NCBI GenBank assembly: GCA_964016885.1
Contig: OZ024745.1
Span: forward strand, 56,730,001-56,794,000
Direction: 5' to 3'
DNA from: Eledone cirrhosa
Lineage: Eukaryota
Length of the DNA: 64,000 nt
How positions within the stretch are numbered: the stretch's first letter is position 1; every line of letters starts with the position of its first letter. Below the pieces are notes generated by a model. The model made no database searches. It was not told the DNA's origin and saw nothing but the letters and a program-made list of their open reading frames with translations. Positions 13 through 63,790 of the stretch are shown piece by piece. The translations under genes were made by a program, and so were the position numbers.

Positions 13-645
13 CTAAAGTTCATAGGTCAGAACATCCAAACCAAACGATTTACCCATTATGCAGCCAGTCATTGCCTCCCGTACTTCAGTGGCTGTTATC
101 GGCTTTTCCCAACACTCCGCCTCAGTGGCCGAGAGCCGCGGCAGTCCGTCGAGGTAGACACTAAAGTTCATCCCTCGATCCCGCCCGCCGCTGTCCCCGA
201 ACAGCTGAGCGAAGTGTCGCTGAAAAGCTTCGTACATTTTCCCGGGATCGAGTAGCATGCGCCCGTCGTGGTCCACCAAAGACCGGATCATGGCTTTGTT
301 GCCACGACGCGCCTCAGCCACTCGGGCCCATTGAACGGCTTTCGTCCCCTCGTGTCTGAGAGCACACACCCTACCTCTGACAACGTACCCTTCGTGCTTT
401 GCATTGAAGAATTGGTCAAGGGCCAATTTCGCCGCAAGTACGTCGGTCGCGATGCCTTTGCTAAGCGCCTCATCTAATTTTCTAACTAGTTCTCCCTCTA
501 CTCTCTTTTTCTCTATAGCTAAAGCCTTACTAAATCTAATGGACTCTATTCTAATCGCTCCTTTCAGAGCAAACCACCACTTGTTGTGATGATGGCCCCC
601 GTCAACGGCCGCTTAACTAGTTCGCTAATCCGGTCTCTGTAGCTA
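13..645 (-). pseudogene. LINE ORF2 linker between endonuclease and RT (Tx1/L1 type)
   Basis: FQRHFAQLF, EKPITATEVREAM, GKSFGLDVLTYE (canonical 'KSPGxDGxxxEFY' region). Confidence 0.8.
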
Positions 646-1974: not shown

Positions 1975-2682
1975 CATCTAAGTCAAACACACAGATCACG
2001 AATTTACGGTCCGTGTAGCTGACTATCTTGAATTGAGGACAGCCTATGCTAGACCTAGCTATTTCCCTACAAAATACTCTAGATATGATCTGGATGACCC
2101 GATAAGGTTTGTCCAAGTCCACATTGGCACATTCGGGAAATCCAATCGGTACCTGTCAGACAGTTCAAAACGCCTGAGCAGGTTGGGGGGGCTCTTGCAC
2201 CCTCCTCCCATATCCACTAATCCCACACAGTCCCAGCGTGCATCTAAGATCCTGTTCCAGTCGCCCACTAACACTAAAGAGAGGAACGTTCCAAGAATTG
2301 TCTCCAGAAGCCGGAAGAAATCAGGCTGCCCAGCTCCTGTCGGTGCATAGACGGCCACTAGCCTGAAAGCTTGCCCGTCTCCGCTGGTCACGTCCAGCTC
2401 CACCAACTTACCTTCTGGGTCCAGGAAGATGGCCCGTATGGCGAGATTCAAACCTCTCCGAAAAAGCAGCAGCAACTCCTCCCCCGATCCAGGACAGCTT
2501 GGACATGCGTACACATCGTAGCCGCCGAAGATCGGTGCGAAGGTGCGTGTTTCGGAGATTCTGGTCTTGCTGGTGGCCACTACATCTATGTTTAGTGACC
2601 TGAGGTCGTTGAGCAGGTGGCCCTGCTTCCATGACGACCCCAAGCCACGCGCATTTATGCTACCTATTCTGAGTGAGGTCAT
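1975..2682 (-). pseudogene. LINE ORF2 apurinic-type endonuclease (APE) domain, frameshifted
   Basis: Motifs IGSINARGL, DVVATSKT (QET-like), LVAVYAP, LVLVGDWN, WTW...SRSYL(D), then SYTD(H/R) in the next frame. Confidence 0.9.
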
Positions 2683-3497
2683 GTTGAAAAGGAGTGGAAA
2701 AGATAGGAAAGATCACTTACCTTACTTCTCGTAGAGGGAGAATGATTTTTCCATCCTTTTCACTGCTTGTGGCCTCCTCCGGAAGGATGTCCTTATAAAT
2801 CCTCCTGGAGCGTGCTTGTCGGAAGTCTCCGATGTCTTTGGGGAATTTTTGTTTTAGTGCCGTGTACGTTTTCTGTGTGATGCGAGTGATTTGTATGTGT
2901 GGAGGTGGTGTAAACCTTTGGGTATTGTGTAATCTTTTTCTGTGATGCTGGTGTTGTGTTGGATGTAGTGTAATAATTGGTTGTTATTCAAATTTAATGC
3001 TGTGTAGTGTGTATCGTTTTGGTTTGCGTTTGTTGTGGGTTTGTTTCTGTTTCGCTTTTTGGTGACTTTTGTGGTGTTGGTGAAAGTAGTGTTGGGGTTA
3101 ATGATGGTGATGGTGTTGGTGATGCTGGCGTGCATGGTGGCATAGCTGTCCTAACTTTATTGTTTGAGAGTTTATTTGTTTCCCTCTGTATTTTGTTTTT
3201 GGAGGGGGGACGGAAGAGGATTTGTTTCTTTTTTGGCTTATTTTTTTTTTTTGATAGTTTCCCACTCGTCGTCGTCACAATCTGTCTCCAGTTGCGATAG
3301 GTCGGGGAGTGGAAAATCCTCCACAGGCGTTGGTTTTGCTTGTGGCGTGGTGGATGGTAGAGGCGCTGGTGCTAGTTCTGGCGCGGTGGGTGGTGGTGGT
3401 GGTGTTGGTTTTGCTACTGTTGCTGGGTTGTTGCTGCTACAGTTGCTTCTGTTGTTTCTGCTACAGTTGTTGCTGCCATTTCTGCTGCTGGTGGTGT

Positions 3498-4007
3498 TTA
3501 TGGTTGAGTCACTGGAGTGGGTAAGAGAGGTGTCCTCAACTTTTTAGCCTGAGGGCAGAAAGCCTTTAGGTGGGTTCCTTCACCAAAAATGACACACCTA
3601 GGCCTTCTACCCTCGACGATTACGGTGAGGTGGCTGCCGTCAGTGAGGTCTATTACCTCTGGGATTTCCTCAATGCTTTTTTGGTCCACTTGGATCAGGA
3701 GCTCCATCCCAGATCCAGACCAGTTCTCCTGCTTTTCTTTTGATATTTCAATTATTTTCGTGTTGGCCTCGATGCCAGCGAGGACGGTAGACATTAGCCA
3801 GGGAATTTCGATGGCCGGTGGCACGTGGGTCACTATGATCTTCACGAGTCTCTGGCCACAACAGCTTGGGACGAGTGTGAAGTCGTCGCTTCTTAATGGG
3901 GCCATGGAGTACTCTCTGGTCTTCTGTGCTGTTCCAAAGAACACGTCCATGATTCCATATTTCTGCCCACGTCTGATGTGGTCTTTTTTCACCCACACAT
4001 GTCCCAA
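3498..4007 (-). pseudogene. LINE ORF1 (gag-like) fragment with degenerate CCHC knuckle
   Basis: EGRRPRCVIFGEGTHLKAFCP resembles C-x2-C-x4-H-x4-C; it lies upstream of the APE ORF and is flanked by Thr/Asn/Lys low-complexity ORF1 pieces. Confidence 0.75.
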
Positions 4008-22743: not shown

Positions 22744-23910
22744 TTAATTAAGTTTATAATATTTGAAGGTTTTTCTAATTCTATGATTGCAAGATATAAT
22801 TAACTCTTGTCGCTTATTTAATAGGATATCATTAGATTTCATGATTTCAAATACTTCTTGGTAGCATAACTTACACTCATATCTGCTATTTTGATAAGGG
22901 GAGGCCCTTTTGAGCACGCTCCAGGTCAGATTGTAATCAATATTCTTCTTTCTATAATTATTAATTGCTTCAACCAAGGAGATTGTATTAGCTAATGCGG
23001 CATTTTTAAAACTATGTTTGTGGGTATTAAATCCTATGTAGGATTGAGTGGAGTCCTTAGTACTAATTTCACATTTATAGACTATGTTATTAATAAGACA
23101 ATTTCCCTTTAATGGGCAATTCCTTTTGATTCCACAGTTACAGCCATTCATAAATATTGTATCAGGAGAGTTAATTGTGTTATCTATAGTGGTATTAGTG
23201 TTACTATTTTCATTAATGTATGGTTTAGAATGGGTTGTAATTAGATTAGTATGGTTAGATAGGTTGTTGGTGGGTGATAGTTTAGGGGATGTGGAGCTAG
23301 TAGAATTCTGTTTGTTTTGGAGATTTTTAGTCAAAATTGGTGTTGAGTTTATTATAGGTGAAGAAGAAGATGGTTTGCTTTGGTTTACTTTAATATTATT
23401 ATGGTTGGTTTGATGTGTTGGTATATTTATGTTTTTTTTTACACTTATATGTGTTGTAAGCACTTATATTCTGTTGTATATTCTTGGTAGTGGAGTAGGA
23501 AAATCTGACAGTAGATCTATTTAAAATTTGATGGTATTTATGGTTTGGTGGGAAGTTCTTCTCTAGGATAGCAAATACTTTTTTATGGATATGGTCTTTA
23601 ATCTGTAGATTAAATGGAGCATTATACCAAGTAACCCGTCTATTACGGTTTCGACATTGTTTCTTATTATGTATCGGGAGGTTTACTGAGAGAGTTACTA
23701 TTAGTGATTTTATTATATATAGATTTAGTTAGATTAAATGATGTTTTAGTCTGATTACTAGGAATGTTGTTAGTTACGTTGTTGACATATGTAAGAGTAA
23801 TAGGGTGAATGGTTTTTTGAAAGTCATTATCTTTTATGTGAGAAGAGGTAGAGAAAATAAGTTTAGGGTTGGTGTCTTTAGGTGTAGTATGAGTGGCATT
23901 TAGGTGTGGG
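22744..23910 (-). pseudogene. Penelope-like element C-terminus: post-RT region, Cys-rich linker and GIY-YIG endonuclease, degraded
   Basis: RNRRVTWYNAPFN, NHKYHQILNRSTVRFSYSTT, CNCGIKRNCPLKGNCL, IVYKC, SYIG, HKHSF, CKLCYQE, LNKRQEL...CNH. Confidence 0.9.
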
Positions 23911-26436: not shown

Positions 26437-26732
<296 letters not shown>

Positions 26733-26883
26733 ATATATATATATATATATATATGTAGAAGTTCTATTTATATTGTTGGGATACAACAAGTAAATATTTT
26801 TATAACTGAATATTATAACAAATTATTGGAGTAAAAATACGATATATTAACAAATGGAAACTATATTTATAAAACCATATTTA

Positions 26884-26944
26884 TTTCATTATACATATTT
26901 CAAGAACACCATGTTAAATTATGGTGTGCTTTCATCAGATAAAA
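26884..26944 (-). ncRNA. Type-I hammerhead ribozyme, intact core
   Basis: TTTTAT-CTGATGA-AAGCACACCAT..ATGGTGTTCTT-GAAA-TATGTA-TA-ATGAAA. Confidence 0.8.
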
Positions 26945-27172
26945 TATAATATACATCAGTTTTATAAAGAATGCGACCATTTCTGTTGGAAGCTCCCGGA
27001 TAGTGGGGTTATCAAATTTATTTATTCTATTATGCAAATTATATATCCGACACTAATTTGCAAAATAGAATAAATAAATTTAATAACCCCACTATCCAGG
27101 AGCTTCCAACAGAAATGGTCGCATTCTTTAAGTGTATGTCAATATTTATTTATAAAACTGATCTATATTATA

Positions 27173-27233
27173 TTTTATCTGATGAAAGCACACCATAATT
27201 TAATTTGGTGTCCTTGAAATATGTATAATGAAA
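27173..27233 (+). ncRNA. Type-I hammerhead ribozyme, intact core
   Basis: Stem I TTTTAT/ATGAAA, CTGATGA 27179-27185, stem II 27186-27215, GAAA 27216-27219, short palindrome-like stem III, predicted cleavage after 27227. Confidence 0.8.
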
Positions 27234-27276
27234 CAAATATGGTTTTATAAATATAGTTTCCATTTGTTAATATATC

Positions 27277-27324
<48 letters not shown>

Positions 27325-27399
27325 GTTATGTACGCATTTATGTGTGTATATGTATATATGTATATATAATTATATGTATACACACACACATATATATTT

Positions 27400-27950
27400 A
27401 TATGTGTATTTGGTATATACATTCGTATGTGTGCGGGTATATGTGTCACGCCGGTTTACGTACGTGTGCGCGTGTTTGTACGTGTGCATGTATTAGCATG
27501 TATGGCGTGTGTTTTCGTGTATGAACGTGCATGTATATAAATGAGTGTATATATTTAATTGTCATTACTATTATGATTTTAATAACCTCTGTCATTTTCG
27601 TTCAACTAATTTATTTACATTATTCTTAACTCCGAAGCCGAGAATCATTCGGTTTTCTAAATAGAATATTAGTCTACGACTCCATTTATACCATAAACGT
27701 GGTTTTGTCTTTGCGTGTAATTGTTCTCAACGCACCATGTAACGACGTATTATGTTCGCTTTTTTCCGTACATTGCCAGGGAACATCTTCAGGAACCATA
27801 GTTATGTCTGCCTGTTTTCCTTCGCTTGCAACTTTTTTCGAAATATTTACTTCTGCGTTCACAGATTGATTTTCTCTAGTTTCAGAAGATCCCGTTAAGG
27901 GTGAAAGCAGCGATTCTTTGCTTAAACTTTAATCTATTATTTTAATAAAT
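27400..27950 (+). repeat. Second copy of the 5292-6050 repeat family
   Basis: Reverse-complement similarity over ~500 bp; ends in (AATA)n/polyA/(TA)n. Confidence 0.7.
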
Positions 27951-27965
27951 AAATAAATAAATACA

Positions 27966-28039
<74 letters not shown>

Positions 28040-28044
<5 letters not shown>

Positions 28045-28230
28045 AGTAAGTAAGACCCCGACGGCTGAGCTCAAGCTGTTTCGACGGCTAATTCACAGAA
28101 TTAGCCGTCGAAACGGCTTGAGCTCAGCCGTCGGGGTCTTACTTACTCCTATTACCCACTCTACTACCCTAAGTATTGAGTACTTTGGTGCGTTATGGTC
28201 CATCTGGTTCCTTACCACTTTTCCCTCGCT
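28040..28230 (+). mobile_element. Fold-back mini-element, family 2 (IR 28040-28152, tail to 28230), carrying the 3' half of a hammerhead
   Basis: Central hairpin GACGGCTAATTC-ACA-GAATTAGCCGTC, then GAAA-CGGCT..AGCCG-TC; (TA)n both sides. Confidence 0.88.
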
Positions 28231-28924
28231 ATATATATATATATATATTTTTTTTTTTGTTTTTTTTGTTTTTAGAATCCATATTCAATAAACAAACCAG
28301 GATTTTTCATTCTGAGGATTGAAAGCAAAACCTTTTGCTTTTAAGAAACCACTGGTAAATGGAATAAATGCCTTATGTTGTTTATTACATAATGAATATA
28401 TATATATATATATATATTGTGGTAAAAGACCGAGAGATTATTATATCCGTTAGTTAGAGTACTCAGTCCAGAGGACGAGTTCGATATTCACCGTAATCAT
28501 ACATGGGTTGAAAAACCGCTCAGTGAAACACGCGTCCTCGAGTATGTCTTGTTAATTTGTTGTGGAACTAACTTTCTCTCTCTTTATATATATACCTAAA
28601 TATCTAACTCTCGGTTTTCTGCTTTTAAATTTGTCTGCATGTGTCAAATCAAATCTACGCATTTAAGCATATTCACTTATGTATTTATTTTCAGAGAAGA
28701 ACAAGTATAACAATGAGAAAGCAGGAATCTCTAAAGCAGCGCTAAGATGAATAGATACATAGGTAGAACAAAATCACCGTAATTTTGTGGATATATTATT
28801 CATATTTGATAATGATTAAAGAAAGTGTAGAATTATTGTAACTTTTTAAATTATAATTTAATGAGATAATGAGAATTGTCGCAGCAACAAACGGGAGAAT
28901 ATCAAGAAATTGTTTTATTAACTT

Positions 28925-61959: not shown

Positions 61960-63522
61960 GAACGTTTAAGGGTAAAGACCCCGCACTTTACCCAGAAGGA
62001 CCACAGGGGAGACTTCCTCAACAAACCATCAGTCAGCCATATCAACCCCATACGTTCCGATATCGGCTCTATCAGCAAAAAGTTAGAGTTCTACCATCAC
62101 TGCTGGCGGCTTCACCACTCCCACTCTGGAGCAGATTTCCGAGGCAATCACTTGGTTCCAAGAATTGCCCGATAAACGCCACACTCGTTTCCTGCAATTC
62201 GACATAGAAGACTATTACGCTTCTATCTCAGAGCCCCTATTGAAGGATGCACTTGCTTTTGCCAGGAATGTTACCACCATAACCGACGCTCAGCAGGATG
62301 TGATCCTCCACGCCGGTAAGACCTTTATACACCACGAAGGATCTTACTGGATCAACAAGAAGTCTGAGACCCCTTTCGACGTCAGCATGGGAGCAGGTGA
62401 CTCGGCTGAAATTAGCGACCTCGTGGGCCAGTACATCCTATACCACGTGAAGAACCTCTTCACGGGCCTAACCGGAGGATTATACCGAGATGATGGCCTT
62501 TTCGCCTTGCACAAAGTTAACCCCAGAACTACTGATGTGTTTCGTAGAAACTTAAGCTCGTTCTTCCGTAATCTAGGATTTAGAATAAGAATAGAATCTA
62601 ATATGACTAGTGGCAACTTCTTAGATGTCACTCTCGACTTAGATACTTCCCTCTACCACAAACCTAACGAGTCCCTCAGATATATAAACGTTAATTCAAA
62701 CTACCCCCAAAACATCACAGATAACTTAGTTAAAAACGTCTCACTCAGAATCCCTGGTCTCTCGGCCAATGAAGATATCTTTAGCGCCTCTGCCTATTAC
62801 TACAACAACGCCCTCGCCCGCAGCGGATTTATAGAAAAGATTGCTTATCTAGAAACCACCCCAAAACTACCTAGGAGAAATAGGCATAGGCAGATTAGTT
62901 GGTACAACTCCACCTTCAATAGAGAGGTTTCTACACCTATAAGTAGGACTTTCTTCAAATTGCTGAATATACACTTCCACACACAACATAGGTACTACAC
63001 TATTTTTAATAAGAATATAATACGACTCTCCTACTCCACTACACCTAACCTAGCTAGGAGTATATCCAATCTCAACACTACAAAATTAAATAAGGCTACT
63101 ACCTCCGAACCCAATCTCCGGACAGGAGCTTTGTGCGATTGCCAAAATAAGGTAACCTGCCCACTTGAAAACAAATGCCTGACAAATGACATTGTATATA
63201 AATGTGATGTCATCTCAGGCACTGATGACAACAACAAAAAGACCTACATCGGCATGACTTCCAACAAGTTTAAGAACCGGTGGTATGCTCATACCCACTC
63301 TTTCAGAAGACCGGACAAATCAAATCAGACAACACTCGCCTCCTATGTCTCAAAGGGAAAATACTCCAGAAAGCGCGCTCTTACAAGGGAGGACACAAGT
63401 GCTGTGCCCTTTGTATTTCAGAGAGCTACGAAATACTATTTGCCAAGGGCCAAATACCAAACAAACACTCTGAATACTGCCCGAGTTGCATGCAAAAAAC
63501 TTTGCTACTTTCTAATATCTTA
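61960..63522 (+). pseudogene. Penelope-like element (Neptune-type Cys linker) RT + GIY-YIG ORF, 5'-truncated and frameshifted; longest open part 62165-63523
   Basis: KDH..F.NKP...INP..SDIG.ISK; QFDIEDYYASI; FDVSMGAGDSAEISDLVG; LYRDDG; NFLDVTL; YHKPN; CDCQNKVTCPLENKCL; IVYKC; TYIGMT; FKNRWYAHTHSF. Confidence 0.93.
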
Positions 63523-63790
63523 AGCCAGTGTTGCTGCCAGATGGCTAAAAAGATTATATTAAAAAAATCCCAATCGACAAAATATCCCCTCCACCTCCAT
63601 CCCACGCTACCCGTACCTCATCTCGAACAGCCTGACGGCACTAGTGTAATATAAGCACTTCTCACCTATTTCCATTTTCCACATGTATAACGTACTTCAA
63701 TGAATGCATGTATATAAGTGTGTATATATGTGTGTGTGTATTTATTTATGAATATGTATGTATGTCTATGTGTATGTATATATATGTATA

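Follow-up and report, generated by a model that had tools for sequence, protein, structure and literature searches.

A 64,000-nucleotide stretch of Eledone cirrhosa DNA (GCA_964016885.1, contig OZ024745.1, positions 56,730,001 to 56,794,000 of the forward strand; hereafter the window) contains a palindrome with a hammerhead ribozyme motif on each of its two strands. The question raised by this locus is whether the palindrome is a unit in its own right, built so that a transcript from either strand carries a ribozyme together with its own antisense, or whether two copies of a longer repeat have come to lie head to head.

Two hammerhead motifs in one palindrome

The original prediction placed two intact hammerhead cores, one per strand, in a single palindrome extending over 26755..27280. 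Both cores were read directly in the letters at the predicted places and were recovered by our own descriptor scan (Table 1). The single palindrome is also real, with outer arms (26832-26971 / 27146-27285) that are 94% complementary and inner arms (26965-27041 / 27054-27130) that are 96% complementary around the turn. Its left limit has to be moved inward, since the sequence at 26755 is unpaired and belongs to the tail of the left copy. The core nucleotides C3 U4 G5 A6 N7 G8 A9 ... G12 A13 A14, the A15.1-U16.1 pair and an H17 other than G are present in both arms and in a third motif of the window.

Table 1. Features of the palindrome and its surroundings, in positions of the window
Feature	Position	Strand	Basis or remark
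(TA)n microsatellite, outer side of the left arm	26732..26755	.	sequence; likely insertion target
Left arm: 5′-truncated 3′ end of a family-1 PLE (Hydra clade by motifs and fold), tail included	26756..27041	-	matches the end of the 3.4-3.65 kb repeat
Tail continuing past TATATCGTA, left arm only	26756..26837	-	continues TTTTTACTCCAATAATTTG...
Left-arm hammerhead motif	26882..26946	-	H17 = 26890
Turn, meeting point of two 5′-truncated copies	27042..27053	.	12 nt
Right arm: 5′-truncated 3′ end of the same PLE family, no tail, straight into (TA)n	27043..27280	+	
Core of a ~22-nt stretch of the right arm and most copies, absent from the left arm	27131..27145	+	repeat offset, copy alignment
Right-arm hammerhead motif, core intact	27173..27233	+	
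(TA)n microsatellite, outer side of the right arm	27281..27323	.	
130-nt 5′-truncated 3′ end of a second, younger PLE family (Hydra clade by motifs and fold)	28263..28393	+	

In the left arm, the CTGATGA box starts at 26938 and GAAA at 26901, and helices I, II and III comprise 8, 10 and 3 pairs, helix II also containing one mismatch. The right-arm motif has CTGATGA at 27179-27185 and GAAA at 27216-27219. Its helix I pairs 27173-27178 with 27228-27233 (6 bp), its helix II pairs 27186-27195 with 27206-27215 (10 positions, one of them a C.C mismatch), and its helix III consists of ATA/TAT, 3 bp closed by a 2-nt loop. H17 of this motif is A27227, and the predicted cleavage site therefore lies at 27227/27228. 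C27234, a T in most copies, leaves the right arm with a helix I of 6 instead of 8 bp; together with T27204 and T27133 this C is a minority letter in the short, very deep read contigs over 26600-27325, which leave the palindrome unspanned.

Chance does not account for these motifs. The descriptor, consisting of the core and three helices, found three sites in the window, derived from two independent repeat families, while its loose form gave 0.06 matches per window on both strands of 200 dinucleotide shuffles, and the form with at least 6, 6 and 3 pairs in helices I, II and III gave none in 200 dinucleotide shuffles. A reading as chance motifs was rejected on these figures. The Rfam hammerhead families gave no match at the gathering score over the whole window and none at E≤10 over 26600-27400. 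Over the turn, Rfam returned generic miRNA-like hairpin matches below threshold, which we read as effects of the palindrome.

Folding bore out the predicted dominance of a long hairpin in read-through RNA, inside which the ribozyme would be buried: the full hairpin 26832-27285 has an MFE of -285.8 kcal/mol (z -48), against -10.5 to -13.9 kcal/mol for single ribozyme regions. The folds of the latter are not more stable than those of shuffles (z -0.4 to -1.6), and a dimer co-fold gave AU-rich alternative pairings that are uninformative on helix III.

Conservation of the ribozyme was analysed in an alignment of 49 distinct copies from several subfamilies, with 4 rows truncated inside the motif dropped. 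Because the rows were chosen by a regular expression on the 3′ core, the conservation of GAAA and of helix III is there by construction. When the columns were paired as in a hammerhead, 97.0% of cells formed pairs, compared with 40-50% when the partner columns were slid by 1-3. In helix II, 94.6% of cells were paired, with two strongly compensatory pairs and three pairs changed on both sides; the switches between GC and AU (26/18) and between CG and UA (23/23) occur in all four combinations, though they represent perhaps just 2-4 events. Helices I and III are nearly invariant and, with hardly any variation to draw on, are neither supported nor refuted. The 5′ core, which lay outside the selection, shows 96-99% majority letters. 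Its columns thus have 1-4% non-majority letters, while the free position N7 is the most variable core column (10%), and the figures are 35% in loop 2 and 25% in the 5′ flank. Such a pattern of variation is the one expected of a structure maintained in active lineages, although it may reflect just a few events.

In 30 rows, the first pair of helix II (10.1-11.1) is A-U; another 14 have G.U and the remaining 5 a different combination. It thus departs from the G10.1-C11.1 that Cervera and de la Pena (PMC4209133) called highly conserved, and the published PLE feature of this pair with an extra nucleotide after A9 is not matched by the copies aligned. The palindromic stretch of helix III and loop 3 reads AUAUGUAU (with a G.U pair) or AUAUAUAU in 49/49 rows, all selected on that stretch. 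At its fourth position, helix II displays a pyrimidine-pyrimidine mismatch in every subfamily seen, flanked by covarying pairs. It falls in columns 31/56 of alignment A2, corresponding to 27189/27212 (C.C) in the right arm and 26928/26905 (C.U) in the left arm, and from the aligned copies it may be a conserved bulge or mismatch.

The retroelement families behind the motifs

A search of the 3.0-Gb genome of the species itself with the query 27054-27285 gave 1878 first-look candidates. Scoring 40 of them yielded 44 matches, most of which (the full-length ones) are 96-98% identical. A 27-mer taken from a sister subfamily has 4923 exact matches in the genome, with none for the control. Family 1 thus counts thousands of copies, most of them solitary among the loci fetched. 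Their 3′ end is constant, most copies being flanked by (TA)n, and their 5′ ends vary between reference positions 1966 and 3618, a spread of 1.6 kb. Homology continues beyond the turn, covering as much as 1.7 kb or more of upstream sequence, and solitary copies run past 27043 into their own upstream sequence. Extension of three loci gave a full repeat of 3.4-3.65 kb, and one of the three carries an extra hammerhead unit ~300 nt upstream, resembling a pseudo-LTR. A tandem array at locus L004 has units of ~1 kb.

The constant 3′ end and the homology past the turn mean that the two ribozymes belong to the ends of two 5′-truncated copies placed head to head. The palindrome is therefore no independent unit, and both of its arms are 5′-truncated 3′ ends of a longer repeat. 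On the 3760-nt family-1 reference, the left arm begins at about position 3501 and the right arm, which shares 96-98% identity with at least 40 other copies, at about 3490. Both are short, ~290 and ~240 nt, respectively.

The 5′ ends of family 1 are not evenly spread. Thirteen of ~45 copies begin at reference positions 3455-3502 (~27043 in the window), just downstream of a CT-rich low-complexity tract in the 3′ UTR of the element. Stalling of the RT at this point could account for the clustering, as could an effect of the alignment or a short form that is favoured.

Long family-1 copies contain broken frames with the RT-like motifs FIQLDIANYYSSI, GGLYRDDMLL and VNFLDVTLNL, followed downstream by a CNCRNKxxC linker, a GIY-YIG-like block (IVY..NYVGST..R..H) and CDLC..CKH; the ORFs are broken in all three long copies examined. 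Database homologues of ~711 aa, on contigs of 2.5-3.3 kb, were found with E values of 1e-26 to 1e-38, and the aligned homologues carry RWK, ADKT, CxCX5C, CxxC and CxH. In the available text of Craig et al. 2021 (PMC8557442), the hallmarks of Hydra-clade PLEs are RWK, DKT, CxCX5C, CxxC and CxH, to which insertion into (TA)n and hammerheads that are easy to detect are added. The proteins compared with this list (remnants, homologues and the intact ORF of a second family) display RWK, the change of DKG to DKT, the CxCX5C linker, CxxC and CxH, and by eye they lack CCHH. At the level of the DNA, a pseudo-LTR (partial tandem), 5′ truncation, an adjoining inverted truncated copy and a one-sided tail were all found. 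Insertion into (TA)n was seen as well, 21 of 36 scored ends running straight into it and the tail-bearing end of the window also then reaching it.

Pfam gave nothing above its cut-off for the ORF remnants, the homologues or the intact ORF of a second family described below, and RVT_1 was not matched; the GIY-YIG motifs VVY...YVG...R...H...E...N are visible in the sequence, while the best Pfam GIY-YIG match reached E 0.05, in 2 of 9 homologues only. A sequence profile of the homologues had no PDB match at E≤1. Among ESM Atlas neighbour clusters, which serve as leads only, GIY-YIG was annotated in 26-50% of members, along with HTH_animal, DUF8422 and RVT_1. Judged by motifs and fold rather than by a tree, the repeat is a Hydra-clade Penelope-like element (PLE).

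The third hammerhead of the window belongs to a second family. It has CTGAGGA at 28312, GAAA at 28345, H17 at 28357 and the helix III sequence 'acca c tggt', with helices of 7, 11 and 3-4 bp. Family 2 has 1222 genome candidates at 99% identity. One of its loci, L084 (G000:C1:319423500-319432700), contains an intact 714-aa RT-EN ORF with Hydra-clade hallmarks and is abutted by a large inverted copy. One hammerhead of this locus lies in a pseudo-LTR, 260 nt before the ORF, and a second, at a distance of 4143 bp from the first, lies at the 3′ end. The ORF shares 40% identity with the database homologues over 703 aa and 36% with the family-1 remnant over 240 aligned residues. The 11 best PDB matches of its AF2 model (mean pLDDT 72, 80-96 in the RT core) are all telomerase RTs (E 1e-8 to 3e-7), which fits the kinship with TERT by which PLE RTs are defined. 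From its near-identical copies and intact frame, family 2 looks recently active. Altogether, the Hydra clade is represented in this genome by two very large, young families, and one of these has an intact ORF.

Other repeats were noted in the window. Two further frames show Hydra-clade PLE hallmarks, one of 239 aa at 22744-23463 (-) with NGCNCGIKRNC, IVYKC..SYIG and CKLC..CNH, and one of 478 aa at 62087-63523 (+) with FDIEDYYASI, GGLYRDDG, FLDVTLDL, CDCQNKVTC and IVYKCDV..TYIGMT; several PLE lineages are therefore present in the window. The frames 13-612 (-) and 2059-2712 (-) look LINE-like by eye: the N-terminus (MTSLRIGSINARGL...) resembles an AP endonuclease, and an RT-like part lies downstream. 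A 187-nt repeat flanks the region in inverted orientation, at 26545-26731 (+) and 28024-28225 (-), each copy adjoining (TA)n. It contains a GC-rich, nearly perfect 56-bp hairpin (26618-26734) with sub-threshold Rfam hairpin matches only, has 2626 first-look genome candidates at 94-98% identity and also lies near PLE copies at four other loci (L002, L021, L023 and L025). It may be a MITE or SINE-like.

Head-to-head pairs and their origin

The arrangement of the window recurs elsewhere in the genome. Among the first 100 places listed for the 27-mer, 12 pairs lie 150-450 nt apart, all of them with the minus-strand copy before the plus-strand copy, and no +/- or +/+ pair at 150-450 nt was found among the same places. 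Six -/+ pairs occur among the 44 scored matches of the right-arm query, and family 2 shows such pairs too. About a quarter of copies stand in -/+ head-to-head pairs. Their junctions vary from one locus to the next, and the two copies frequently abut. Within a pair, the truncation points can be near-equal, as at 3501/3490 (the pair in the window), 3489/3501, 3502/3499 and 3580/3580, or far apart, as at 3573/2996.

The 3′ ends of family 1 are of two main kinds. After TATATCGTA, 21 of the 36 ends scored at loci L001-L030 pass straight into (TA)n, 10 continue into a common tail of ~80-90 nt (TTTTTACTCC...; 26756-26837 in the window) and 5 are of another kind. Eight of nine scored pairs combine one tail arm with one (TA)n arm. 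Which arm lacks the tail is biased, because the loci came from a search with a query ending in (TA)n; the frequency of tail-ended partners (8/9 pairs, compared with 10/36 ends overall) is unaffected by this bias.

We consider it very probable that the palindrome consists of two 5′-truncated 3′ ends of a high-copy Hydra-clade PLE lying head to head in (TA)n, each with the hammerhead of its family, that it likely arose in one integration in which both cut strands served as primers, and that its ribozymes are predicted to cleave only as dimers or with the protein of the element. In the proposed mechanism, the endonuclease would cut both strands of the (TA)n tract, and each 3′-OH would prime the copying of element RNA from its 3′ end. 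Two short cDNAs would then point at each other and be joined, leaving the hammerhead-bearing 3′ ends facing outward. Priming from both sides of one break would in this way give the -/+ geometry with outward 3′ ends. As the arms differ by 4-6% and by a 22-nt indel, a single event requires later decay.

The original prediction went further and can be read as a working bidirectional device, in which dsRNA from read-through would block the ribozyme and could supply siRNA or ADAR pathways, and in which transcripts initiated at the turn could cleave themselves. The stability of the hairpin in read-through RNA, the intactness of both cores and the hundreds of similar -/+ pairs speak for it, and this abundance makes hairpin RNA plausible as a by-product. 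Against a device stand the junctions and arm lengths, which differ from locus to locus, so that no fixed device has been copied; most copies are solitary, and the arms of the window are decaying, the shortened helix I of the right arm included. A promoter at the turn is unsupported, and RNA starting there would contain a single ribozyme of a type, the minimal hammerhead of PLEs, reported to have no detectable cleavage as a monomer (PMC4209133). The suggested self-cleavage of such transcripts accordingly fares poorly, and we regard the device as very unlikely: what was taken for one is two truncated 3′ ends of a retroelement with thousands of copies. The predicted need for dimers fared better, the short palindromic helix III on which it was founded being present here and published for hammerheads of this kind (PMC4209133).

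Two further origins can be weighed on the same evidence. The short hammerhead units of 240-330 nt might be non-LTR retrozymes, spreading through hammerhead-processed circular RNAs rather than arising as plain 5′ truncations of PLEs. The cluster of 5′ ends at reference 3455-3502 and the large excess of short units over long ones fit this idea, and animal retrozymes are argued to derive from PLE pseudo-LTRs in the accessible part of a 2026 preprint (10.64898/2026.07.22.740005). Yet no head-to-tail (+/+) pair of short units within 600 nt was found among the first 100 places listed or at the loci inspected, and a retrozyme array was rejected for these places; the tandem array at L004 has units of ~1 kb, the 5′ ends are still spread over 1.6 kb, and their cluster adjoins the CT-rich tract, which may stall the RT or shorten alignments. 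This makes a retrozyme origin highly improbable. A foldback element or MITE, a type of DNA transposon bounded by long terminal inverted repeats, that contains hammerhead-like words by accident has next to no probability, even though the inverted repeat is long, nearly perfect and set between simple repeats, with generic miRNA-hairpin matches from Rfam over its turn. Each arm corresponds to the 3′ end of a repeat that bears RT and EN, arms occur most often singly and in variable lengths, and the hammerhead shows covariation and core conservation and itself occurs far above chance. Fixed terminal inverted repeats moving as a unit with a target-site duplication were not found and are contradicted by the variable arms and solitary copies, and the foldback candidate was rejected.

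Known ribozymes, retroelements and the meaning of the locus

In the minimal hammerheads of PLEs (min-HHRs) described by Cervera and de la Pena 2014 (PMC4209133), helix II is long, helix I is short and helix III is a tiny palindrome, which implies dimers. Cleavage was not detectable in monomers and was weak in dimers, and 'dual min-HHRs' that lie on opposite strands within ~100-700 bp of each other have already been reported (PMC4209133). The motifs studied here share with them the type I topology, the long helix II, the short AU-rich helix I and the tiny palindromic helix III, as well as the location in a terminal repeat, the thousands of mostly solitary copies and the opposite-strand pairs. 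They differ by a helix II of 10 bp with a conserved C.C mismatch, by an A-U or G.U pair at 10.1-11.1 and by a helix III of 3 bp with a 2-nt loop.

Hydra-clade hammerheads, in the available rows of supplement S2 of Craig et al., follow the scheme ctgaNga(+1)/helix II of 3-7 bp/(+1)gaa/'acNN N NNgt'/H/helix I and lie ~100 nt from the 3′ end. Their helix II of 3-7 bp (28 rows in that part of the supplement) contrasts with the 10 bp found here, whereas the first helix II pair of our copies resembles the 't...t' extra pair of those published rows, and the family-2 helix III 'acca c tggt' is close to the 'acca a tggt' listed there for Hydra-1_oBim. With the elements of this clade, as far as the available text of PMC8557442 describes them, the Eledone families share a single ORF of ~710 aa, insertion into (TA)n, a hammerhead ~100 nt from the 3′ end, pseudo-LTRs, inverted truncated copies and a one-sided tail. 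The same portion of that source gives '<3 kb' for the elements, while the units here measure 3.4-4.1 kb and have a long 3′ UTR of low complexity, and family copy numbers in the thousands are a further difference from what it lists.

The priming step has a parallel in another clade. According to the available portions of a 2024 study (PMC11167929), the protein of a Poseidon-clade PLE from the lizard Anolis cleaves and extends both strands in vitro. In the same portions, the ribozyme of that element required protein for its cleavage, insertion in vitro did not depend on the ribozyme, and no RNA-seq ends were found at its site. Such activity on both strands would give two copies with their 3′ ends outward, the geometry observed here, and would account for a tail through internal initiation. 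The clade and the host differ, and by analogy we infer the link from this activity to the head-to-head pairs, which the available text of PMC11167929 does not itself draw. The animal non-LTR retrozymes of PMC7229834 resemble the short copies, in the accessible part of that work, by their short non-coding units, type I hammerhead and kinship with PLE terminal repeats; theirs are head-to-tail arrays giving circular RNAs, as described in that part, whereas such arrays of short units were not seen here.

In a full element, one hammerhead in the pseudo-LTR and one at the 3′ end would cut tandem or read-through transcripts down to a single unit; trimming by an upstream and a 3′ hammerhead is a published hypothesis. 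In the dead, truncated pair of the window, the ribozymes would be without a role of their own, and read-through RNA would merely fold into a long hairpin. Nothing suggests selection for the arrangement.

A broader proposal is that about one in four insertions of PLEs of this clade yields a near-symmetric hairpin locus, as both cut strands prime reverse transcription, that many hundreds of loci would thereby set the ribozyme-bearing 3′ end against its own antisense, that the hairpin RNA could seed small-RNA silencing of its own family, and that the asymmetry between tail and (TA)n is a read-out of two initiation modes. As a whole, we hold this proposal to be unlikely. The matches listed in a literature search held nothing specific on inverted PLE pairs as sources of siRNA.

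PLE terminal-repeat hammerheads and inverted truncated copies are already in print, and since the layout has been described and a single insertion is its likely origin, the palindrome is what a known class of retroelements ordinarily produces. With thousands of insertions, the frequency of pairs, their junctions and the asymmetry of their tails can all be counted within one genome, and such counts make the idea of both-strand priming testable.
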